Virus record (IMG/VR): IMGVR_UViG_3300045988_022824
Coordinates: 1 to 18,036 of that record
Source: a virus
DNA length: 18,036 nt
Reading direction: 5' to 3' (one strand)
The notes under the pieces are model-generated. The model was given only the letters and a program-made list of their open reading frames with translations, ran no database searches and had not been told where the DNA came from. Every line of letters begins with the position of its first letter. The first letter of the stretch is position 1. Of this stretch, positions 1,235-18,036 are shown piece after piece. Both the position numbers and the translations under genes were made by a program.

Positions 1235-1957
1235 TTATTTCAAGGCTTCTATAAGTCGGGTGGCCCACGGCGCGTTTTTGCTTCCCAGAGCGAAGCACGG
1301 CAAGGTGTGTCCGCACTGTTTGGCAACCATTTGCAGGACCTTAACTTGGTCTGGGTGTGTCAGATTATGGATACGTTGGCCGTCAAAATATACCAGACGG
1401 CTTTCTCCATTGGGCTGAATGATACACTGCATCATATCCTCCTCATTAGTGTTAGTGGTTGTTGCTTGTAATAGTTGGTTTGCTTTGTTGATTACATAGT
1501 TGACGTCAAGTCCGTTGGGGGCTAGGTCGGGGCACCCGGCGTGGTTGGTTCCCGGCACTTCTCGGTGTAACCAGACGTTGCCGTTGAGTCCGTCGTGCCA
1601 TAGGTGACTCCAGCCGTATCGTCGGGCGATATCGGCGCAGAGTGCGGCGGACGCGTCCATGCAGGCTTGAGTGCAGGGGATTCCCTCCATTCCGCCTTCG
1701 TGTTCAATGCTGATGGTTCTGTTGTTGCTGGCGTAGTTCGCGTCACTCCAACTGCCGTCTGCTTCGCTCACGTATTGGTGTATTTCGCCGTTTCCTCCAA
1801 TGCCGTAGTGGGCTGATGCCGAGCTTGCGGGTAATTGGAAATAGTTGTCTGCGCTGGTTAGATAGCCTACCATGATGTGTAGGGTGATGTGGTCTACGTG
1901 GTATCCGTCCCGTCCGTTGTAGTAGTTGGGGGAACCTATCCATGTAATGCCATCCAT
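1235..1957 (-). CDS. Endolysin, N-acetylmuramoyl-L-alanine amidase (Amidase_2 / PGRP-like) with an unassigned C-terminal domain
   Basis: The N-terminal ~165 aa carry typical Amidase_2 features (HITLHIM, AHYGIGGNGEIHQYV, ISIEHEG, LHREVPGTNHAGCPD, i.e. His/His/Cys zinc ligands). The C-terminal ~65 aa (MMQCIIQPNGESRLVYFDG...) form a separate, presumably wall-binding, module. It lies next to the holin. Confidence 0.9.
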   Translation of the reverse strand: MDGITWIGSPNYYNGRDGYHVDHITLHIMVGYLTSADNYFQLPASSASAHYGIGGNGEIHQYVSEADGSWSDANYASNNRTISIEHEGGMEGIPCTQACMDASAALCADIARRYGWSHLWHDGLNGNVWLHREVPGTNHAGCPDLAPNGLDVNYVINKANQLLQATTTNTNEEDMMQCIIQPNGESRLVYFDGQRIHNLTHPDQVKVLQMVAKQCGHTLPCFALGSKNAPWATRLIEALK

Positions 1958-1960
1958 TGC

Positions 1961-2332
1961 CTAACTCTCCTTACCGTTGTTTTCTTTTTCGTCGATGTTG
2001 AAGATGTTGAGAATATTCGAGCTGGATAGTTCGGGGTTGATTTTCACGCAGTTTTCGATGATTGATGTGATTTCAGTCAGACAAATGCCTGCGCAAGCGG
2101 GAATGAATACGGGTAGTTCGATTCCAAGATTGATGTATTCTGAACCGTATTCTACGATTAACGCAACGCAAATCACTACCAGATACGTGAACTTGTGGCC
2201 GAGTCCCTCCCTCATTTTCCTGCTGGAAAGTTCGCCGTGCATGATTGCGTTGACTACTCCGGTGATGTAGTCAATCAGTCCCAATAAGAATACAATGCCG
2301 ATAACGATTAGCTCTTGGATTGACATGAACAT
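1961..2332 (-). CDS. Holin (Phage_holin_4_1-like)
   Basis: 123 aa with hydrophobic helices and the family-typical segment ITGVVNAIMHGELSSRKMREGLGHKFTYLVV. It sits immediately upstream of the endolysin. The stop is TAG at 1961-1963. Confidence 0.85.
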   Translation of the reverse strand: MFMSIQELIVIGIVFLLGLIDYITGVVNAIMHGELSSRKMREGLGHKFTYLVVICVALIVEYGSEYINLGIELPVFIPACAGICLTEITSIIENCVKINPELSSSNILNIFNIDEKENNGKES

Positions 2333-2335
2333 TCC

Positions 2336-3442
2336 TCACTTTCTTATACCTGATTGCTGTAACAGGCCGCCAAGTATCATGCTAAACTCCGCCTTGATTT
2401 GCGGTGTTTCGAAACGTAGTCGTCCGACGCGGTAGGCGCTTAATATTTTCTGTGTCATGTCGTCGGAACGTTTGAGCATGATGCAATCATTATCGACCAG
2501 TCGGTAGTCAAACGTAAAATCACGGGTGATTTTCGGCTGTTTTTTGGTGATTATATATAGTACTTCGTCGGTATCGTTTAATTGTTGGTATACGTTGAAA
2601 ATACCGTATTCCGTGGTTCTTAGCGTGAAAGCATAACCAGCGTTGTTAAAATCACTGATAAGGGTATTGGCATTGTCCCTAAAATCATTATTGATTGCAT
2701 AATTCGCATAATTTTCGTCATATTCGCGTAAAAACTTTCCGAATCTCGATGTGGCCACCTTTGCGCTGAACCCGCCGTAGTCGGCCAGTTCCACCATGAT
2801 GAACCCGTTGCAATAGCGTTGGTATTGCGTATGATTGTCCAATTGTGGTTTCAGGTTGATATTGAATGCGCTGAAATACGGGTTGGCCAATGTTACGGCG
2901 TTACTGCACATGATAACGCGAACCCTATCATTCCAACGGTCAACCGTATTATAAAACTCCTCCAGCGCGGACACTTCACCGCCCAAATACCGCATATTAT
3001 CGGGGAATATCTCATCAAAGACAATGGTGCGCACTTTGGGGTAGGCGACTGATTTCACTTGTCCGGCCTGACTGAGGGCAATGAAATACCCCATGATATG
3101 CCATGTGGGGCGCGTCTTGCCGTGTTTGTCCGTGATGGCGTCCCTGTCGTCCAACCAGTGACATTCTGCTTGATTGCCGGATACGCGAAACTCAAGTTCC
3201 GGGTATTGTTCCGCTATGTCCGCGCACCATGTGCCCTTGTTTTTCTGTTCCTCTGCGGTACGTCTCAGATAGATGAATTGCCAGCGTTTTTTAATCCAGT
3301 CGCCTACGACCAGTTTTTTGGCTCCGTAGGTTTTTCCGAGACCTCGTGCGCCGACGATGAACATCCAAGGCGCGTGATAGGATAACACGCGCCCATAATC
3401 ATAATAATCACCCTCGGCTAACAGTTTATCCATATGTACCAT
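2336..3442 (-). CDS. DNA encapsidation (packaging) ATPase, phi29 gp16-like
   Basis: Walker A is IVGARGLGKTYG and Walker B is RTIVFDEIF. It is colinear with remembered phi29 gp16 (LSYD..FVIGARGIGKSY, STIVFDEF, EVSALL, NAVS..NPYF). Track ORF 2336..3805 has an R/K-rich N-terminal extension that overlaps the upstream gene, so I start at ATG 3442 (MVHMDKLL). ATG 3433 (MDKLL, like the phi29 gp16 N-terminus) is equally possible. Confidence 0.9.
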   Translation of the reverse strand: MVHMDKLLAEGDYYDYGRVLSYHAPWMFIVGARGLGKTYGAKKLVVGDWIKKRWQFIYLRRTAEEQKNKGTWCADIAEQYPELEFRVSGNQAECHWLDDRDAITDKHGKTRPTWHIMGYFIALSQAGQVKSVAYPKVRTIVFDEIFPDNMRYLGGEVSALEEFYNTVDRWNDRVRVIMCSNAVTLANPYFSAFNINLKPQLDNHTQYQRYCNGFIMVELADYGGFSAKVATSRFGKFLREYDENYANYAINNDFRDNANTLISDFNNAGYAFTLRTTEYGIFNVYQQLNDTDEVLYIITKKQPKITRDFTFDYRLVDNDCIMLKRSDDMTQKILSAYRVGRLRFETPQIKAEFSMILGGLLQQSGIRK

Positions 3443-3464: not shown

Positions 3465-4682
3465 TTAGAAGTTCGGTGGGGCACTAGCGCCGTCCCATAC
3501 GACCAGCAGATTATACACAGTCCGATATCGGCTCGGGTATTGCCCGAAAACACCGTCGTTAAGCAGATTATCCAATAAGCCGCCCAATGTGGTTGCCTTC
3601 GGTAGCGCCTCGGCGTATGCCGGGCCTTGATGATATGCCGACGCCCATAGTATTTGCATTTTCGCGTCCGAGTAGACTTGCGGATAATTGTTGTAATCCG
3701 TCTCGAACTGGTTGCGTTGTCCCTGATGTGATTCGGCGCGTTGCGCCCATGTTTTGAACGCCGCCGATTCTGTGGGGGTAAGGGGGCGTGTAAACGTCCC
3801 GCCATTGCTCATGAGCGCCGCTATCTCGGGGCATGTTTTCGCAAACGTCGCGTAGCCTGTCGGGTCGGCGGTTTTCATTGCGTTCAACACGTCCAACCGT
3901 CTGTTAAACGACCATTGCGCAATCCCTATGCCCTGCCTGTTGGCTAATTCTACCGCGTCCCATTGCAATGAGCTTTCCACCGTGCCGATGCAGTAGAGCG
4001 CGTAACTGTTTTTGCCGTTGCCTGTGGATGGCGTGGCTTGGCCGCCCGAGTCACTGGGCGCTTTAACACTACCCTTGGCCTTCCATGTTTGGGCTGTGGT
4101 TTTGTAGAACATCATGGTACCCGCGCCACTGTCGTTGTCGCGGTAATGGTAGATAAGATTGTCGCCCTGTTGTTGTATCCATGTGTCACTGCTGGATGTG
4201 CTACCCGGGTTGTTCGAGCCGGTAGGGTTCGAGCCGCTGTCATTGTCGCCGCCGTCCGGTTTTTTGCGCGGGTGCAGATATCCGATATACGCTTTTTGCA
4301 GTGGGAGTAGTTTATGTACGCTTGGCTCGGGGTTTTGCGTAATCACGTCGATGGAATCGCCCTGTATTCCATCAACGACAATGGCCACGTGTGTTGACGG
4401 GTAATTGGGATAGCAGACCTGCCATATGGCAACATCACCGGGCATAGGGTTCCACGTGTTGTCTTTTTTTTCGAAAATCTCCCCGACTCTTGCGCTTACG
4501 GGATGATGCGTGTATAATCCACCGGCCCAACCGGTAGGGGTGATACAATCCTGAACACTACACCCGTACTCGTCCATGCAGTACTTGGCCCACAAGTCCC
4601 AGCATTGCGGGCCCCAACTGCCGTCCATATCCCAAAAGTGGTTTTCGGTCTGTTTCACCCATGTCTTAAAGCCAACTGCCAT
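3465..4682 (-). CDS. Tail-associated peptidoglycan hydrolase: N-terminal CHAP peptidase plus C-terminal lysozyme/transglycosylase-like domain (phi29 gp13 analogue)
   Basis: CHAP signature: the Cys in GPQCWDL and the His in STHVAIVVDG. A G/S/N-rich linker follows. The C-terminal domain has an ES-type motif (IGTVESSLQWD, GIGIAQWS). It occupies the phi29 gp13 position between the fibres and the lysis/packaging genes. Confidence 0.8.
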   Translation of the reverse strand: MAVGFKTWVKQTENHFWDMDGSWGPQCWDLWAKYCMDEYGCSVQDCITPTGWAGGLYTHHPVSARVGEIFEKKDNTWNPMPGDVAIWQVCYPNYPSTHVAIVVDGIQGDSIDVITQNPEPSVHKLLPLQKAYIGYLHPRKKPDGGDNDSGSNPTGSNNPGSTSSSDTWIQQQGDNLIYHYRDNDSGAGTMMFYKTTAQTWKAKGSVKAPSDSGGQATPSTGNGKNSYALYCIGTVESSLQWDAVELANRQGIGIAQWSFNRRLDVLNAMKTADPTGYATFAKTCPEIAALMSNGGTFTRPLTPTESAAFKTWAQRAESHQGQRNQFETDYNNYPQVYSDAKMQILWASAYHQGPAYAEALPKATTLGGLLDNLLNDGVFGQYPSRYRTVYNLLVVWDGASAPPNF

Positions 4683-4692
4683 ACATACCAGT

Positions 4693-4720
4693 ATACCCCA
4701 CGGCGTCGGCCGTGGGGTAT
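4693..4720 (-). terminator. Perfect 12-bp stem-loop downstream of the fibre gene
   Basis: ATACCCCACGGC-GTCG-GCCGTGGGGTAT lies between the TAG at 4725 and the ATG at 4682. No clear U-tract follows on the minus strand, so it could be a factor-dependent or partial terminator, or an mRNA stabiliser. Confidence 0.5.
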
Positions 4721-4724
4721 GGTG

Positions 4725-5735
4725 CTAGGCGATTGGTGTCAGCGTAGTAGCCAAGTACAGCGATTGGGGGAATGCCGCGTAAACCCTGTCCTGACCTGCG
4801 CACCAATTTGCGCCCTGCTTCGGTAAGACTGAATTATATTGAAATGTGGCCTGAACCCGTCCGTCGGTCGTGACCTTGAACGAGGCGGGCCAGCCACCAA
4901 TACCATGAGATGGGTTCGGGATATTGGCGATATTGGAATCACCCGCCACATAAAAACCCGCGCCAACATAGTAGACGTCCGCGCTTGGACGCATGGAATC
5001 GGGGAGTTGCGCCGCAAGCGTGAAGGAAGCGTTAGACTGGTTCAATCCGCTGATGAGCGCCGCTCCGAAGAATTTAAACGCTCCGATGGTTTCATTATAC
5101 ATGAAGTGCATTTGAGAATTATTCTCTATAAGCGTCACGCCTGAAGACCCTGAATGGGACACGGTTCCCGTTTTCCAGCCTTTAAGCCAAGCGTCACGCC
5201 ATGCCTTAAGCGCCGTAAGCCCTGAAGTGTTGGCGGCGATAAGCTGGTTAAGGTCCTGCGCGGTACCCGGGTATCCGCCCTGCTTGGTAAACGTTGTATC
5301 GGCCTGCGCTCTGGTATACACCTCGGAGGCGTTCGCCTTGCCGTCCACCCTGCCGGAAAGCGAAGACACCGTGCCTTGCAATGCCGTTAACGCGGTGTTT
5401 TCCGCCTTGCCGTTGATAGTGGACATGAGCGATTGTGTGGACGGCAGTGACGTAACGCCGAGCGCATTGAAATAACCATCCAATTCGGTGATATCGCTCT
5501 TGTTGGTCTGCGCAAGCCCTGCCGCATTGTCAGCCGATTTCTTGGCCTCGTCCGCCGCTGTTTTCGCGTTGTTCGCCGCCGCCGTCGCCGTGGTGATATT
5601 GGTAGCGTTCGTGTACATCTGATTATCAATCGCAGTCATGGCGTCGGTGAAGTCACCGCGCCATGATGGCCTATCATTCGGATTGTCGCCGAACGTCGGC
5701 AGATTATAATGACCGGTGTGCTGTGTAGTAGACAT
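4725..5735 (-). CDS. Tail fibre / receptor-binding protein
   Basis: Track ORF 4725..5795 was trimmed to ATG 5735 (MSTTQHTGHYNL...). GGGAG lies 7 nt upstream, and ATG 5741 is an alternative. The N-terminal ~45 aa are paralogous to the gene at 5752..6120. An Ala/Asn/Thr-rich helical segment and a C-terminal globular domain follow. Position is as for the phi29 appendage genes. Confidence 0.7.
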   Translation of the reverse strand: MSTTQHTGHYNLPTFGDNPNDRPSWRGDFTDAMTAIDNQMYTNATNITTATAAANNAKTAADEAKKSADNAAGLAQTNKSDITELDGYFNALGVTSLPSTQSLMSTINGKAENTALTALQGTVSSLSGRVDGKANASEVYTRAQADTTFTKQGGYPGTAQDLNQLIAANTSGLTALKAWRDAWLKGWKTGTVSHSGSSGVTLIENNSQMHFMYNETIGAFKFFGAALISGLNQSNASFTLAAQLPDSMRPSADVYYVGAGFYVAGDSNIANIPNPSHGIGGWPASFKVTTDGRVQATFQYNSVLPKQGANWCAGQDRVYAAFPQSLYLATTLTPIA

Positions 5736-5751
5736 TGTCATTCTCCCTTTG

Positions 5752-6120
5752 CTAGTTCTTGTTACCGACGCGGACGATGCCGTTCTCGTCCGCAAACATG
5801 TTGTCCAATTGCTTGGCGGTCAACCCCAATGTTCCCGGCTGGCTTGCGGTTTTCGGCGCTTTGCCGTCAATCTCGGTCTTGAGCGACTTCGCCGTGTTGG
5901 TATTGGTGAGGCCTCCCAGTTGCAGATATCGTTGGTCGGCCGCCGTCTGAGTGATGCCGGGGTTTTCGGCAACATGTTGGATGGCGTCGGCGTTCTTCTT
6001 CATCTGCCCGTCGATTTTAGCCATGTCCCCGTTATAGTCGCCGGACCATGTAGGCCGGTCGGTTTCCGCGAACTGGCTTAACTCGTAGTGTTCGGTGTGG
6101 TTGGTTGCGGTCATGGTCAC
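5752..6120 (-). CDS. Short fibre-like protein sharing the fibre N-terminal module
   Basis: GTG at 6120 overlaps the upstream TGA (GTGA), and ATG 6114 is an alternative. The N-terminus MTMTATNHTEHYELSQFAETDRPTWSGDYNGDMAKIDGQM parallels MTMSTTQHTGHYNLPTFGDNPNDRPSWRGDFTDAMTAIDNQM of the next gene. Confidence 0.6.
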   Translation of the reverse strand: MTMTATNHTEHYELSQFAETDRPTWSGDYNGDMAKIDGQMKKNADAIQHVAENPGITQTAADQRYLQLGGLTNTNTAKSLKTEIDGKAPKTASQPGTLGLTAKQLDNMFADENGIVRVGNKN

Positions 6121-6755
6121 ACCCCGCTGGTCTCGAAGTTCGATACGGTCGGATTACGTTCAACATAGCGCGCGTCCGCCTCGGATTGCGTGATAAACGC
6201 CATGTCCGCCACGGGATTCTCCGGCATACTCTTACCGTAGGGGAATTGGGAGCGGCCCGGAAAATCACCGGGCACGCAATTATCCACGGCGGTGGCCTTC
6301 AAGTCATATTCGCGTGCCTTAAGCGACAACCCGTCATACTCCTGCGCGGTCAACTGCATGTTATCGTAATCACCCCAGAACAGTCCATGATTACGCGCAT
6401 TATCGTACATGCCGCCGAGTACATCCCCAAGCGGTTGTACGGTGCCGTACACCGGGGAGGTTGCCGCGCCCTGCTGTTCCATCCGATGAATCAGTTCAAG
6501 CATTTCCGAGCGTAGGTCGTTCATGGACTTGTTGACTTGCGCCACGGTATCCGCAAGAGCCTTGTCCACGGATACCGCAAGGTCGCTGGTGACTCCCTCC
6601 AGCCTGCTCAAATCGCATTGGAGGGTATCGAGATTATGACGTAGACATTCAATCAACTGCAACGTAGTCAATCCGTCCCGATACGTGAACGGCACGGACG
6701 TGGGCACTCCGTCGTACAGGCGTTGCCGTGGAATCAGCGCGTTAATGGCAACCAT
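6117..6755 (-). CDS. Tail/appendage structural protein (coiled-coil, function unassigned)
   Basis: ATG at 6755 (MVAINALIP...) has GGGAG 5 nt upstream, inside the end of the preceding gene. The stop is TGA at 6117-6119. A central heptad-like helical region is present (LDTLQCDLSRLEGVTSDLAVSVDKALADTVAQVNKSMNDLRSEMLELIHRME). It lies between the lower collar and the fibres. Confidence 0.6.
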   Translation of the reverse strand: MVAINALIPRQRLYDGVPTSVPFTYRDGLTTLQLIECLRHNLDTLQCDLSRLEGVTSDLAVSVDKALADTVAQVNKSMNDLRSEMLELIHRMEQQGAATSPVYGTVQPLGDVLGGMYDNARNHGLFWGDYDNMQLTAQEYDGLSLKAREYDLKATAVDNCVPGDFPGRSQFPYGKSMPENPVADMAFITQSEADARYVERNPTVSNFETSGV

Positions 6756-6757
6756 GA

Positions 6758-7552
6758 TTACTCCCATTCTCCATAATTATAGCAGTTACTGAAAATAGTA
6801 TCATACGACCCCCACACCTGCATGAAACACGGTTCGAGACTCCTCACGACTTCCATGTCCACGTTGATAATCGCCTGCCGGTACTCCTGTATCAGACTCA
6901 CGGCGCTCTGACTACGCCCGGTCACATGACTCCTGCCCTTGGAATTGCTTGAATCATGCTGGTAGTCGGTCGCGCTTTGCGCCGTGGTGTGGCTGGTTGA
7001 ATCCTGCGAACTGGACGCGGTGCCGGAACTGTCCGCCTGCGACTCGTTGGCATGGCTGGCGTAGCGGGAAAAATCGCCTTGCACGCCGGTCTGCGGCACG
7101 TCGCTATCGAAACTTCTCGACGTGGTGGTGCTGGAATTATCCGACTTGCTGGTGCTGTTGCTGGTGGAATCCTGCGTACTGGACGCCTTGCCCGACGACT
7201 GGGATTCACTGCCGTTCTCGCTGTCCGTCGTCATGTCCATAGAGTCCAGCGGGTTATATTCCATGTCCAATGTCCGATAGCGCTCATTGAAATACGGCAT
7301 GATTTCCGCCATAGTCATACCCAAGTAGAAGACGAACATCTGCGCGGTTTCCTGACCAATCTCCCTCAGCGCATAATGTCGGATGATTTTCTCATTCAAC
7401 TCCGCGCGGTGGTTCTCATCGTGAATCGGGTAATAGTCTGCGCTGAGATGTAGTTTAGTGTCCGTGTCGTAGCCCATGTTAATGAGGTTGCCGAGGGTTT
7501 CGGTGTACTCCCCCGGCGTTGTCATTGCATAGGCGCTGAAGTCCTGTGTCAC
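6758..7552 (-). CDS. Lower collar protein (phi29 gp11-like) with an S/T-rich C-terminal half
   Basis: The segment YPIHDENHRAELNEKIIRHYALREIGQETAQMFVFYLGMTMAEIMPYFNERYRTL matches the pattern I remember for Picovirinae lower collar proteins. It lies directly downstream of the portal gene. GTG at 7552 overlaps the portal TGA (GTGA), and ATG 7525 is an alternative. Confidence 0.7.
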   Translation of the reverse strand: MTQDFSAYAMTTPGEYTETLGNLINMGYDTDTKLHLSADYYPIHDENHRAELNEKIIRHYALREIGQETAQMFVFYLGMTMAEIMPYFNERYRTLDMEYNPLDSMDMTTDSENGSESQSSGKASSTQDSTSNSTSKSDNSSTTTSRSFDSDVPQTGVQGDFSRYASHANESQADSSGTASSSQDSTSHTTAQSATDYQHDSSNSKGRSHVTGRSQSAVSLIQEYRQAIINVDMEVVRSLEPCFMQVWGSYDTIFSNCYNYGEWE

Positions 7553-8511: not shown

Positions 8512-10839
8512 TCACTCATAGCTGATGCCCGGCAGTGGCTCATTATCCGCCCAGTCGGTCACACCAATATACTCGGGCTTGCTCCATACGGTCACACCCC
8601 GCTCGAACATGCCCTTGATAGTCAAGCGGTATTCCTCCGGCAGAGTGCCCCTCACATAAGCCCCCTGCATCTGCCAAAAAGTGAATTTCTCCATGCATTC
8701 CAACGAGGCGGGCGGGGTAATGAAACGTTGGACAAAATACCCATAGCGTAGCATGTACTCGCCTGCGGCCCTCAGAGCACTGGGGGCGCACGTCTTGAAC
8801 CTGACCAACACGCCCATGATGCCATTGCTCAGGTTGAACATGTCACCACCGAGCGCGCCCGAAGTGGTTGGCGGCGTCAACTGCATTTGCTGGACTTGCG
8901 CGTTGATTCCCGCAATGGCGTTCTGGTAGTCGCCTTGTGCGGCGTAGGCGGCCAGACCGTAATTGGCCTGTGAGGTGATGGCATTGAGTTGGTTGCCCAA
9001 TGCGGTTGCGCCGCTTGCATAGGCGTTCGCCTGTGAGGTTGATGCCGTATTGGTGGCAATCTGATTCGCCGTACTGGCCGCGGCGGTCGAGTTTGAAATC
9101 GCCGCCGAGGAATTGATGCCGTGGTTGGCTATGTCCATTTGCGCGGTGCCGAGGAACGCGCCGCCGATGGCGTTCGCCACCCCCAGCGGGTTACGAGAGG
9201 CAATGGCGTTCAGGCTGCCGCCGATGGCTCCCGCCATGCCATTGAGATTGTTGCTGCTGATGTTCTGCTGCACCTGCAAACCGGCCATCTGACTGGTTCG
9301 GTCCTGACTGATGGCAAGGGACTGGTTCAACGAGTTTGCCGCAATCGCATTGCTGGCGGTGCGGTTCTCGTTGCCCAAGTTGGTTTGCCGTGCGGCGTAT
9401 TCGCGTTGCCACATTGCGTTTGAATTGGCGACATCCGCGGACGCCAATGCTTTTTGTCGTGTCCATTGCGCGGATTCCTGAGCGTAGGCGCGGGTGTATG
9501 CACTGTTCGCCATAGCCAATGCGCCGCCGTTGTTGACAACGCTGAAATGAGGGAGGTTGGTGACGCCGAAGCTTGCGTTAAGCATTTCACCGCCGTCAAT
9601 CGGCAGACCACACCCCTGATTGTTGATTTGGAGTGGGGTCAGCGTGTCCGCTCCGGCCTCATTGTATCCGGGGATGTAGAAATTGATTCGTGTACCGGAC
9701 GGGGCATAGGTGTATGTTTCCCTGATAGTGAGGTTATCTGACTGGATATCCTCCGGTCGATAGTTGACTGTCGTGCCGTTGAGGCAACTGCATTCCACGA
9801 CGCAATAGGGATAGCAACGGAGTTTACGGAGGTTGCGGTAGCGTTGCGGGATATTGAAAAGACTTCTGAAATTGTCTACCGTCATGATATCCTCGTAACG
9901 CATGTCCGAGTCCACGCCGCTTTGGAAACCATAGACTCGTCCATGTTGCGCGTCAACCGACTGGCCGTAGATTTGTGTTACCTCCTGACCATAGCGGTTG
10001 ATGTAATCCTGTGGGATTTTCGGCACCATGTACACGGCGCAACTGCCTTGGGTAATCCACGGGTATGATGTGCCAGCCGCCATGATGTTCCATACGTAAC
10101 TCATTCGGGAGTCACAATAGTAGACATTGCATCCATCCGTCGCACCCTCGAATATGCTGCCCGTCGCCGTACTCAAATCGGGTTTCGACTCACTGCCGGG
10201 GGATTTGGTCAAATCCGTGGTGCTTACGATGATAACGCCATAATCAACCCAATTCAATCCACCATGCACGGTGTCCAAATGCTCCCCGGATATGATGGAA
10301 TGATACCGTTGCGCCGTCGTCACCATTTCACTGCCGGTGTCCAGACCCTCCGGCAGTGCCAGATAGGTGCGCCCGTAACCATTCCACTGGCGTTCATTGG
10401 CCACACCGATGTGACCACGGGTCACATAGCAACTGCCGAACGTGACATCATGCTGGAAACTCTGCCACACGTCCAGCATCAAAACCAGTTGCGTGCAATG
10501 GGCGTTGACGTATTCGACGCGCTGGATGAAGTAATACCATGCGCGCGGCCCCTCCAACCCGGGGTAATCATTGTAGGCCACCAGATAATTCCAGTTCGAC
10601 GCCTCATTAAATGGGAGTTCGACGCGGGCGGGCGCGTTGAAAATATGCATGGTGGCCGGACGGCATTCCACGCCATCCAGCTTGTCAAACCATTGTTCTT
10701 GTGTTTCACGTGAAACAAACCGCACTACATCCCGGTAGGATGCATCCCACGGGACACGGCAGAGTTTCAACGTGGTGTTTGGCGTCCATTCTGCCCATGA
10801 AAAATTAGCTTCTACGTAGGGGTTTGCGTCGTCAATCAT
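8512..10839 (-). CDS. Tail knob / distal tail tube protein (phi29 gp9-like)
   Basis: Track ORF 8512..10947 was trimmed to ATG 10839 (MIDDANPY...). GGAGG lies 7 nt upstream, and ATG 10845 is an alternative. The N-terminus LCRVPWDASYRDVVRFVSRETQEQWF resembles the gp9-type start. It sits between capsid and portal as in phi29. A long A/N/S/Q/G-rich insert spans about 8870..9510. Confidence 0.8.
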   Translation of the reverse strand: MIDDANPYVEANFSWAEWTPNTTLKLCRVPWDASYRDVVRFVSRETQEQWFDKLDGVECRPATMHIFNAPARVELPFNEASNWNYLVAYNDYPGLEGPRAWYYFIQRVEYVNAHCTQLVLMLDVWQSFQHDVTFGSCYVTRGHIGVANERQWNGYGRTYLALPEGLDTGSEMVTTAQRYHSIISGEHLDTVHGGLNWVDYGVIIVSTTDLTKSPGSESKPDLSTATGSIFEGATDGCNVYYCDSRMSYVWNIMAAGTSYPWITQGSCAVYMVPKIPQDYINRYGQEVTQIYGQSVDAQHGRVYGFQSGVDSDMRYEDIMTVDNFRSLFNIPQRYRNLRKLRCYPYCVVECSCLNGTTVNYRPEDIQSDNLTIRETYTYAPSGTRINFYIPGYNEAGADTLTPLQINNQGCGLPIDGGEMLNASFGVTNLPHFSVVNNGGALAMANSAYTRAYAQESAQWTRQKALASADVANSNAMWQREYAARQTNLGNENRTASNAIAANSLNQSLAISQDRTSQMAGLQVQQNISSNNLNGMAGAIGGSLNAIASRNPLGVANAIGGAFLGTAQMDIANHGINSSAAISNSTAAASTANQIATNTASTSQANAYASGATALGNQLNAITSQANYGLAAYAAQGDYQNAIAGINAQVQQMQLTPPTTSGALGGDMFNLSNGIMGVLVRFKTCAPSALRAAGEYMLRYGYFVQRFITPPASLECMEKFTFWQMQGAYVRGTLPEEYRLTIKGMFERGVTVWSKPEYIGVTDWADNEPLPGISYE
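10702..10717. repeat. Perfect 16-bp palindrome TGTTTCACGTGAAACA (copy 1 of 3 of the core GTTTCACGTGAAAC)
   Basis: Read directly from the sequence. It lies inside the tail knob gene, where it encodes F-V-S-R-E-T on the minus strand. Confidence 0.95.
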
Positions 10840-10858
10840 TGTCATGCCTCCGGTACGG

Positions 10859-10899
10859 CAAGGCCCGGAGCGCTCACGTGGGTTGCGCTCCGGGCCTTG
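10859..10899 (-). terminator. Perfect 15-bp stem-loop just downstream of the capsid gene (possible partial terminator or mRNA stabiliser)
   Basis: CAAGGCCCGGAGCGC-TCACGTGGGTT-GCGCTCCGGGCCTTG. A second 8-9-bp hairpin (GAGAGAGT...ACTCTCTC) lies at about 10916..10946. No U-tract is present. It lies between the capsid stop (10952) and the tail knob start. Confidence 0.5.
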
Positions 10900-10951
10900 T
10901 ATTGCATCTCGCCGTGAGAGAGAGTAGCCAACCGGCCACTCTCTCATTATA

Positions 10952-12067
10952 TCACGCGGTCACGGTCACATTCTTCCTGCCGGATACGCCAAACAGCGTG
11001 GCGGTGATATCAGACGTGCCCTGCTTGACACCCTCGACGACACCCGACTCGGACACTGTGGCGTTGGCCGGGGTGCCGGACGTCCATGCGGCTTGCGCGG
11101 TCACGTCGGCGGTTCGCCCGTCAATCATGGTCGCCGTAGCGGTCGCCTGCGCCGTATGACCCGTGGCCACATTCGAGACGTTGACGGCAATCGATGCGAT
11201 AATCGACGGATTAAATCCGATAACACCCTCGCCAACCACCGGCACGTCCAAGGCGGCGGACACGGTGCCCGGCACCTCCGGTGTCGCCGGATTCGTGTAT
11301 AGGGCGGTCGCCGTCACCGGGATAGTGGTGTTCGGTTCGTCGAGACCGACGACCAGCACGCCGGTGGGTGAAATATACGTGTAATCACTCTTCGGCTTAA
11401 CGGTGTCTCCGATGGCGTACTCAACCGCATTCGACCGGAACGTAGCCGTGCCATCGTTGGAGATGGTCGTATCGGCAGTGACCTGCACCGCACCGCCACG
11501 CGCCACGTCCGACGGCGTGGTCGTGCCACCGCCGTACATGGTGAGCTTAAGTTCAAAGGTCGGCGTCTTGGCCGTCGTTCCGGTCGGTGCCGCCATCTTG
11601 GCGGTGGAGCCCGCTCCGGTCCAGAACATGACGGCGGGGGCGAAGCCGGACACGCTGATGATGTGCTGGACGTGCAGGTAATGGTTGACCGAGTTGATGT
11701 TCACCGGGTTGGTCTGCTGGGTCATCTCATTGATAACGGGAATATCAATGAGGAATTTGTCGGTGGTGAGGATGGCTTGCACGCCGTCCATGCCGAACCT
11801 GTCTTGTGGGATTACGATAATCCGGTCGATGGTCGGTTCCGCGTCCGTACGCTGGAACACGGTCGCGAGGCCCTGCACGTCAAGCGCGGACTTGACTTCA
11901 GGGGAGCAGAACAGTACGAGTTCGTCCGGGCGGGCGAACGTCGGCATGTGACGCGCGTTATACCGGGTGGATACGAATTTCAGCGTGTCCGCCCATGCTC
12001 GAATCTGGCGCAACATGTCGCGGGCGTCGGTTTCCGTCGAACCCATGTCGTTAAGGTCATGGTTCAT
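10952..12067 (-). CDS. Major capsid protein, C-terminal portion (phi29 gp8-like HK97-fold part plus C-terminal Big_2-type Ig-like domain)
   Basis: Colinear with the second half of remembered phi29 gp8 (e.g. HYLHVQHIISVSGFAPAVMF versus YYHVWQTLSVSRFANAVAF). The C-terminus VTAQAAWTSGTPANATVSESGVVEGVKQGTSDITATLFGVSGRKNVTVT is Big_2-like. This ORF is in the same frame as track ORF 12077..12382, separated only by a TAG and three codons. Confidence 0.85.
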   Translation of the reverse strand: MNHDLNDMGSTETDARDMLRQIRAWADTLKFVSTRYNARHMPTFARPDELVLFCSPEVKSALDVQGLATVFQRTDAEPTIDRIIVIPQDRFGMDGVQAILTTDKFLIDIPVINEMTQQTNPVNINSVNHYLHVQHIISVSGFAPAVMFWTGAGSTAKMAAPTGTTAKTPTFELKLTMYGGGTTTPSDVARGGAVQVTADTTISNDGTATFRSNAVEYAIGDTVKPKSDYTYISPTGVLVVGLDEPNTTIPVTATALYTNPATPEVPGTVSAALDVPVVGEGVIGFNPSIIASIAVNVSNVATGHTAQATATATMIDGRTADVTAQAAWTSGTPANATVSESGVVEGVKQGTSDITATLFGVSGRKNVTVTA

Positions 12068-12681
12068 ATGGACACGCTAGTAGCCGCCCAGCTTAGCATA
12101 CTCGACGAACTGGTGGCACATGGCCTCGAACAAGTCAACCTCGGCCGCATTGTAACAGGAGGTGAGAATCTGGGAGGTGAGCGAGGCCAGACCGTTTTCT
12201 GAGGTGAACGCGCGTTGTAGTGTCTTGTCGTCCGTGGTGGCGGGGTAGAAGTGGGCGAAGTCAAGACGGTGGTAGAGCTGTCCACGTCGATTTTCCACTT
12301 GCGGAAATTGTCCGCGCCCAAGTATTCCGCGTCGGGGTCGTACACCTGTGCGAGCGGCATACCTACGGCGATTTCCTGCCACGTATCACCATACGTCTGA
12401 GAGGCACGCTGGAACACGCCAAGAGGGTTGTTCCAACGCCATGTGTTCACGTAGGTGCCGCCGATACGGTTCACTAGCGCCGAGTAAAACTCGTTCTTCA
12501 ACTGGGTGGACGACATGAGGGTGGCCATCTGCCTGTCCATGTTCATTTGGGTGGCCGAGGGCATACGCCTCTGATATTCGGGGGATGCCTCGTTGCGAAT
12601 CATGTTGAGAATCTGCGCGTTGTTGAATTCGGTGAGCGGGCGCAACTGCTGTTTTGGCGTCACTACTGGAGTGGTTGGCAT
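12064..12681 (-). CDS. Major capsid protein, N-terminal portion (frame is lost after about codon 130)
   Basis: ATG at 12681 has AGGAAGGAA 8 nt upstream. The first ~130 aa align with the phi29 gp8 N-terminus (NMIRNEASPEYQRRMP..., NEFYSALVNRIGGTYVNTWRWNNPLGVF). After ...NFRKWK the translation turns into P/S/T/R-rich junk, while the homologous sequence continues in the -1 frame (track ORF 12077..12382: ENRRGQLYHRLDFAHFYP...YNAAEVDLFEAM...). Confidence 0.85.
   Translation of the reverse strand: MPTTPVVTPKQQLRPLTEFNNAQILNMIRNEASPEYQRRMPSATQMNMDRQMATLMSSTQLKNEFYSALVNRIGGTYVNTWRWNNPLGVFQRASQTYGDTWQEIAVGMPLAQVYDPDAEYLGADNFRKWKIDVDSSTTVLTSPTSTPPPRTTRHYNARSPQKTVWPRSPPRFSPPVTMRPRLTCSRPCATSSSSMLSWAATSVSI
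12077..12079 (-). other. In-frame TAG (amber) codon inside the capsid reading frame
   Basis: Minus-strand reading: ...GGC GGC TAC TAG CGT GTC CAT ATG AAC..., i.e. ...LGGY*RVHMNHDL..., with capsid homology on both sides. Confidence 0.9.
12291..12294 (-). other. Frame-change point in the capsid gene (A4 run in the mRNA sense)
   Basis: The minus-strand sequence AAG TGG AAA ATC GAC (frame A) has to become ...GAA AAT CGA CGT GGA CAG (frame B). One extra A in the run would give KWKNRRGQLYH and make the whole 10952..12681 span a multiple of three. Confidence 0.8.
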
Positions 12682-13051: not shown

Positions 13052-13093
13052 CCCTTAAAGGAAAAGGCACGGCGTCAATCACGACGCCGTGCC
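13052..13093 (-). terminator. Intrinsic terminator-like hairpin plus U-tract at the end of the replication module
   Basis: On the minus strand: GGCACGGCGTC-GTGATT-GACGCCGTGCC followed by TTTTCCTTT. The stem is a perfect 11 bp. The U-tract runs straight into the AAGGGG ribosome-binding site of the next gene. Confidence 0.65.
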
Positions 13094-13231
13094 GGATTGC
13101 TAGGCTGTGCGGGTTCCCTCGCCGTCGCTGGGCGCTGGCTACGCACGTCTACATCCGACCGAACCGCCTTACCGATTGCCTTACGGTCGGGCCACCGAAT
13201 CGACTTGGGACGCACACCCCGCTGTTAGTTA

Positions 13232-17793: not shown

Positions 17794-17826
17794 TTTTTAC
17801 TTCCTTCCTTATCGGTTGATACTCAC

Positions 17827-17835
17827 ATCATACCA
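17827..17835 (-). promoter_or_regulatory. Candidate extended -10 promoter element (TGgTATGAT on the minus strand) reading inward from the right ITR edge
   Basis: It is the mirror image of the left-end element and straddles the ITR boundary, about 35 nt upstream of the ATG at 17793. Confidence 0.35.
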
Positions 17836-18036
17836 CACCACAAAACACAACACACCCAACAACACAAAAAACAACACACTCAAACCATGAACAAAACAAC
17901 ACACCAAAAAACATAAAACACAACAACACACAAAACCGACAACAGAAAAGAACGCAACAAAAAACAAAACAACAAGGACGACAACAAGAAACAGAACAAG
18001 AACAAGGATAAAAAACAAAGAACAAAGAACAACAAC
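17830..18036. repeat. Right inverted terminal repeat (207 bp, perfect)
   Basis: It is the exact reverse complement of 1..207, verified block by block. Confidence 0.95.

Follow-up and report, generated by a model that had tools for sequence, protein, structure and literature searches.

A phi29-type major capsid gene interrupted by a missing base and an amber codon in a single uncultured phage record

The virus record IMGVR_UViG_3300045988_022824, analyzed here over its full length of 18,036 nucleotides (nt) and referred to below as the window, carries on its minus strand (12681..10952) one phi29-type major capsid gene, disrupted by the loss of a single base and by an in-frame amber codon. The two interruptions are almost certainly non-programmed lesions in this single capsid gene, and both are private to one record. 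We propose, with a probability of roughly 0.55, that they represent record-level errors, either base-call or consensus errors that were left in the sequence or a stretch with poor local support in an assembly built from a population of very diverse strains. In that case, the real phage would produce a normal capsid protein of 576 amino acids (aa).

The intact form of the gene is provided by 82 fetched IMG/VR relatives, the nearest of which is ~90% identical at the nt level and 97% at the aa level, and by the best 120 protein matches, which span 574 to 600 aa at 76 to 93% identity. Alignment with the capsid genes of the closest relatives, which had been suggested in a first-pass annotation of the window made from the sequence alone, returned an uninterrupted gene of ~575 aa in 82 of 82 relatives. 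The best 120 protein matches likewise derive from one uninterrupted capsid gene, save for a few truncated or frameshifted products.

In the window, the gene is distributed across three open reading frames (ORFs), all on the minus strand, i.e., ORF A (12681..12064; 205 aa), an ORF in the middle frame (12382..12077), and the C ORF (12067..10952; 371 aa). Capsid codons 1 to 135 (M1 to S135) lie in frame A at 12277..12681, as is evident from protein alignment and from tblastn with the major capsid proteins of the relatives, in which query residues 1 to 135 correspond to 12681..12277 at 98 to 99% identity. Codons 136 to 201 (LYHRLDF...AKLGGY) are found only in the -1 frame, at 12080..12277, where they display low aa divergence and add ~78 bits to the profile match, while codons 203 to 576 and the TGA stop, which specify the rest of the HK97-type domain and the C-terminal Ig-like domains (Pfam positions 185 to 323, followed by Big-like), occupy 10952..12076. 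ORF A continues over 12064..12276 as an out-of-frame tail of 70 codons, rich in Pro, Ser, Thr, and Arg, which is closed by a TGA and ends in an ATGA overlap with Met206 at 12067. As the first-pass annotation had pointed out, this overlap (12067..12064) leads gene callers to report two ordinary-looking ORFs, thus hiding the problem, and the addition of one base to the 1730 nt of the gene yields a length divisible by three, namely 577 codons (576 aa and a stop).

Profile positions 1 to 109 of the Phi29_MCP family (PF25622) are matched in ORF A and positions 185 to 323 in the C ORF. A conceptual fusion of the parts matches positions 1 to 323 of 323 with 278.3 bits (cut-off, 27), compared to 88 and 113 bits for the separate pieces, and because the fusion scores ~78 bits above the two pieces together, the middle frame encodes genuine capsid sequence. 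The protein also matches PHROG 2006, "major head protein" (2.4e-55), and a phmmer comparison of the repaired protein to the phi29 gp8 chain 6qvk (E = 1.7e-30) aligned query residues 22 to 413 to residues 18 to 402, unbroken across both lesion sites. Homology of the three ORFs to intact relatives, with 93 to 97% aa identity, is continuous at E = 0, which is far more than could be expected by chance. A single capsid gene extending through three ORFs and carrying two lesions, as originally put forward, is therefore borne out by the fusion profile and the alignments; as written, the gene does not form a single uninterrupted ORF, one base and one sense codon being needed.

The first lesion is the absence of one base at 12276..12277 (minus strand), where the window reads GAC AG-CTC and the relatives read GAY AGC CTN or GAY TCG CTN. 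Both a 12-way protein alignment and the DNA alignment with the 82 relatives show that the relatives read KWKIDVDSLYHRLDF across this site. Frame A of the window is homologous to them through KWKIDVDS (AAG TGG AAA ATC GAC GTG GAC AGC; 12300..12277), the Ser135 codon AGC being located at 12279..12277, and LYHRLDF then follows in the -1 frame from C12277. A CC dinucleotide (a C2 run) between Ser135 and Leu136 has, in other words, been reduced to a single C; the extra base is present in 82 of 82 relatives, one of which is identical to the window over 40 nt but for that C. The frame change that had been reported from the sequence is thus real, although its placement at the A4 run of UGG AAA AUC (12294..12291, minus strand) is not, as this run lies 14 to 17 nt upstream of the lesion and frame A remains homologous for five codons further. 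A homopolymer error at the A4 run, to be repaired by one extra A, is not upheld either, given that the missing base is a C and that the intact relatives themselves mostly possess A4 (the rest having AAG or AAAG). A -1 slip at this run was rejected owing to the five further codons of frame-A homology and to the A4 of most intact relatives, and a slip of tRNA-Lys on AAA would yield KWK-(K/E)NRRGQ-LYH, a sequence which is found in no relative.

The second lesion is a TAG codon, which was confirmed at 12079..12077 and shares its frame with the middle and C-terminal parts of the gene. It is explained by a single G-to-A change at 12078, converting the TGG of Trp202 to TAG; Trp is encoded by TGG at this position in 82 of 82 relatives, inside the invariant motif GGYWRVHM, and 12078 is one of only five private substitutions in the gene. 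Four other genes in the window end in TAG, which agrees with the earlier view that the codon has not been reassigned genome-wide. A reassignment of TAG throughout the genome and a suppressor tRNA encoded by the phage were both rejected on the strength of these four terminators, the absence of tRNA genes, and the lack of any other in-frame stop. Amber suppression or readthrough, which had been listed among the candidate causes, finds no support in a codon that specifies Trp in every relative, in a window devoid of a suppressor tRNA and of further in-frame TAG codons.

Neither lesion could be traced beyond this record. The exact 26-mer string of the lesion had no match in viral_contigs or metagenome_contigs, degenerate patterns of the frame transition and of the TAG returned 0 matches in the viral and metagenome collections, and exact-product look-ups of both ORF products and further window proteins (five in all) found none on record in the contig index. 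The 70-residue out-of-frame tail had no relative among 5.8 billion protein clusters. The existence of a circulating capsid-null lineage, in which the lesions would be shared by independent assemblies, was tested on these data and failed, as no other carrier was found.

Programmed recoding, in which a -1 frameshift (at either AGC or the A4 run) combined with amber readthrough or suppression would produce a full-length capsid protein, is highly improbable. The sign of the frame offset does fit a -1 event, and a -1 shift immediately after AGC, with C12277 being read again, would give exactly the ...DS-LYHR... of the relatives. The shift point (GAC AGC|TC TAC; 12282..12272), however, contains no X XXY YYZ heptamer, and the A4 site neither forms such a heptamer in the 0 frame nor coincides with the position at which homology switches. 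Re-pairing from AGC to CAG is impossible, and that from AAA to GAA entails a first-position mismatch. A frameshift-stimulating RNA structure was not detected either: the predicted minimum free energy of the segment 12300..12180 is -21.6 kcal/mol compared to a shuffle mean of -25.8 (z = +1.36), i.e., it is less stable than shuffled sequence, and no Rfam match or tRNA gene (0 by ARAGORN) was detected in the window. Conservation across homologues is the accepted criterion for programmed shifts (PMC3711429), whereas the frame transition or the TAG is present in 0 of 82 relatives. The use of TAG as the terminator of four genes also argues against recoding, as does the absence of an in-frame stop or frame change in any other core gene, and two inefficient events in series would be unable to supply a protein that is needed in hundreds of copies per virion.

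Alternatively, the 205-aa and 371-aa products may be regarded as a functional split capsid, being translated in a coupled manner through the ATGA and co-assembled, for which we see next to no likelihood. The stop/start overlap exists, and the Met at 12067 is conserved in the relatives; this Met is, however, the conserved internal residue of "RVHM," without a Shine-Dalgarno sequence upstream, and the ATGA owes its existence solely to the AAC at codon 207, a codon which some intact relatives share. No relative is split at this place. Such an arrangement would, furthermore, forfeit residues 136 to 205, which rank among the most conserved of the family and are aligned to residues ~130 to 200 of phi29 gp8, and would replace them with 70 out-of-frame residues that have no homologue. 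This loss of a conserved segment effectively refutes a functional split, which is in practice excluded.

The age of the lesions may be gauged from the selection acting on the gene. When the 66 codons that separate the lesions are taken in the -1 frame, their median divergence from the 82 relatives is 14.9% at the nt level versus 3.0% at the aa level, and the corresponding values for the N-terminal part are 11.6% and 2.2%; private substitutions number five in 1730 nt, the TAG included. This strong contrast, coupled with so few private changes, is therefore indicative of purifying selection on the gene as one frame for essentially its whole history, and the lesions are, therefore, either very recent or not real. 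The relaxed selection expected of a broken gene was not seen, either in the ratio of nt to aa divergence, which is that of a constrained gene, or in the number of private substitutions, and the gene is thus not a pseudogene in decay. Every other core gene aligns with its homologues over the full length and in a single frame.

Frame-breaking lesions of this kind are not restricted to the window. Essential genes, among them the capsid gene, carry sporadic frameshifts in roughly 5 to 10% of the public assemblies of the clade, and none of these is shared. Among the 82 IMG/VR relatives, five carry out-of-frame indels in essential genes, each of them private and with sizes of 1, 5, 16, and ~17 nt. 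In L040, the gene for a 314-aa protein in the terminal-protein position harbors two 1-nt deletions and the connector gene harbors one (lesions at ~2500 and ~9690). The polymerase gene is affected in L003 (a 5-nt deletion at ~4775) and in L059 (~17 extra nt at ~4150-4190), the connector gene in L044 (a 16-nt deletion at ~7450), and p172 in L052 (an out-of-frame indel at ~1490-1505). Lesions in the capsid gene itself are borne by two further assemblies and are apparent in one further protein. In L083 (capsid gene, 1390-3109), a 14-nt deletion at codon ~489 leaves products of 498 and 87 aa; in L084 (1927-3676), a 13-nt tandem duplication, CTTCTTGCTATAA, at codons ~175 to 178 leaves products of 181 and 391 aa, and a 10-nt deletion splits the tail gene (3788-6105); and the capsid protein P0076 possesses a frameshift-like C-terminal tail. 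L083 and L084 are ENA scaffolds whose sample accessions both fall in the ERZ162682xx range, and either real defective genomes or scaffolding artefacts could account for their breaks. The in-frame stops seen in relatives are all confined to the last 1 to 14 codons and represent natural length variation rather than lesions. The window is one more case of this clade background, in which the 1-nt events resemble consensus errors and the 5- to 17-nt events resemble real slippage mutations or graph artefacts; owing to this mixture of event types, the background does not settle the choice between an error in the record and a true mutant.

A technical cause, rather than a true mutant molecule, is nonetheless the most likely origin of the two lesions. 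In a strictly lytic, protein-primed phi29-like phage, two lethal lesions in the structural protein of highest abundance would not be expected to form a fixed haplotype. The intact capsid genes of the relatives, the full-length state of the other core genes, and the frequency of sporadic lesions in public assemblies of the clade also speak for an error. Record-level error is preferred because a doubly lethal capsid allele could not sustain itself in such a phage and because neither recurrence nor relaxed selection was observed. A local cluster around the lesions would fit a weakly supported stretch and is suggestive in this regard: three private events (the two lesions and a change at 12218) fall within 203 nt, where ~0.6 would be expected, an excess that is not significant once scanning is taken into account, and private changes form other small clusters elsewhere.

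Several observations weigh against record-level error. The missing base belongs to a C2 run, with no long homopolymer involved, and hence does not represent a textbook platform error. The genome-wide density of private substitutions is 2.76/kb, compared to 0.46 to 6.0/kb for 22 relatives in the same analysis; private substitutions at otherwise invariant columns amount to 1.14/kb (0.08 to 2.2/kb in the 22 relatives), and both values fall mid-range. With such an ordinary private load and no other broken gene in the window, an elevated error load was not found. Finally, the lesions of several relatives are deletions or duplications of 5 to 17 nt, which resemble replication slippage or graph artefacts more closely than base-call errors, so that real defective genomes may be common in the clade. 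Approximately 12 of the private substitutions are synonymous and ~19 are not, a ratio which is biased by the ascertainment of private sites and was not used as evidence.

Private non-synonymous changes were also recorded at residues that do not vary among any of the aligned relatives, namely D to V in the connector (7940; 79/79), E to G in the tail protein (8663; 79/79), F to C in the ATPase (3225; 55/55), H to N in the polymerase (14455; 80/80), and E to A in a 356-aa protein (5632; 33/33). The count of such changes is typical for the relatives, and they may be real.

A genuinely defective genome, in which the deletion and the amber codon are both real and define a capsid-null variant, is a tentative reading to which we assign the lesser, though by no means a negligible, probability. 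Such a variant would have been caught either as a short-lived, dead-end molecule or as a "cheater" that uses capsids provided by co-infecting close relatives, one lesion killing the gene and the second then being selectively neutral. The remainder of the sequence is of ordinary quality and complete, with both inverted terminal repeats (ITRs), and the TAG sits in a frame which is no longer read after the base loss, so that either lesion makes the other neutral. The many strains with 90 to 97% identical capsid proteins also render trans-complementation plausible, and the multi-nt indels of the clade (the 13-nt duplication and 14-nt deletion in capsid genes, and the 5- and 16-nt events in polymerase and connector genes) are hard to dismiss as base-call errors. 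On the other hand, relaxed selection is not evident in the gene, the assembly of a capsid-null haplotype would require that it predominate among the reads of its strain, and neither lesion recurs in other assemblies, leaving no circulating lineage in view. It is unlikely, in our estimation, that the lesions are real and that a capsid-null genome persists in the capsids of co-infecting relatives of 90 to 97% identity, the lesions of the clade then constituting a standing pool of defective "cheater" genomes within the hyperdiverse population that phi29-like phages of Actinomycetota form in nature. From the four causes originally considered, base-call or assembly error (which we favor) and a defective variant are thus still live, while a tRNA-Lys slip and amber suppression are unsupported.

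The 18,036-nt window represents a complete linear genome with a G+C content of 53%. It is bounded by an ITR, as the first-pass annotation had recognized, of 223 nt (1-223 and 17814-18036) that is 98% complementary and perfect for 207 nt. The repeat is composed of G/T-rich short repeats (GTTGTTGTTCTTTGTTC...) and is far longer than the ITR of phi29, which measures only 6 bp. All genes are located on the minus strand in a phi29-like order, i.e., SSB, the 314-aa gene in the terminal-protein position, the protein-primed DNA polymerase, a 115-aa gene in the scaffold position, capsid, tail/gp9-like, and connector, with the gp16 ATPase and holin genes further along. Among cultured phages, Bifidobacterium podoviruses are the nearest, and their capsid proteins share just 42 to 44% aa identity with that of the window. 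A megablast search with the capsid region found no match among GenBank phages, relatives there being found at the protein level only, and the close relatives are without exception uncultured metagenomic contigs.

A non-coding gap of ~180 nt (13052-13231) separates the stop of the polymerase gene from the start of the scaffold-position gene, and gaps of similar size are present in relatives (4620-4806 in L001 and 4209-4395 in L002). No Rfam match was obtained for this gap, even at E<=1, and the phi29 packaging RNA (pRNA) was undetected anywhere in the window; the gap could house an early/late promoter switch or a packaging-RNA-like gene. The gene following holin varies between an Amidase_2 gene in L001 (16517-16907) and a Glyco_hydro_25 gene in L002 (15416-16483), and the endolysin module is therefore exchanged within the clade; the corresponding gene of the window (1235-1957) encodes 240 aa. 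Two adjacent TAG-terminated genes, at 4725-5795 (356 aa) and 5752-6120 (122 aa), termed "fibre" genes in the first-pass annotation, possess homologous N-terminal domains, as residues 1 to ~110 of relatives' queries match both, while their C-terminal parts constitute the most variable region of the genome.

Several structural genes (8512-10947, 6758-7552, 6117-6767, 3465-4682, and 4725-6120) fall into two sharply distinct allelic types, even though the relatives that carry them are otherwise close. For example, the tail/gp9-like protein is either ~95% or ~56% identical to the window copy, and identities for the 264-aa, 216-aa, and 405-aa proteins range from 58 to 72% up to 87 to 97%. The capsid gene of the window has only its five private bases, yet its nearest relative is 90% identical. 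The allelic types and the scarcity of private capsid bases are therefore indicative of heavy recombination and mosaicism in the population.

With regard to annotation, the ORFs 12681..12064 and 12067..10952 are best entered together as a single, disrupted major capsid gene rather than as two genes, and the record merits a flag as containing a probable error or a defective allele. If the lesions were real, the window would represent a natural capsid-null phage genome reliant on complementation, a finding of modest interest to the study of phage populations.

A capsid ORF which continues in another frame or past a stop bears a superficial likeness to the -1 frameshift of T7 gene 10A/10B and to the readthrough product A1 of Qbeta. 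Those events are conserved and take place at defined slippery or leaky positions toward the 3' end, where they add a minor, extended product to the major one, whereas the lesions of the window fall in the middle of an essential domain, occur in one record only, and lack the accompanying signals. The repaired product, like phi29 gp8 (PDB 6qvk and 6qyd; PF25622), is predicted to comprise an HK97-type domain followed by one or more Ig-like domains. In contrast to gp8, however, the window gene lacks an intact ORF in the form in which it is written. Among laboratory phages, amber capsid mutants that are suppressor sensitive are known, the sus mutants of phi29 gene 8 being an example. The TGG-to-TAG change would similarly be conditionally lethal, with rescue only in a suppressor host or through complementation; the relatives of the window are, in contrast, uncultured metagenomic phages, and the additional frameshift is beyond rescue by any suppressor. 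The closest counterparts are the sporadic frameshift and nonsense lesions of genome and metagenome assemblies, which, in contrast to conserved frame transitions, represent sequencing errors or pseudogenes (GeneTack survey; PMC3711429), and which are likewise confined to single records, non-conserved, and devoid of a slippery site, the homologues being uninterrupted. Evidence for a new recoding mechanism is absent, and the disrupted capsid gene is unusual among such cases only in that two lesions fall within ~200 nt of one essential gene while the other ~16 kb contains no broken gene.

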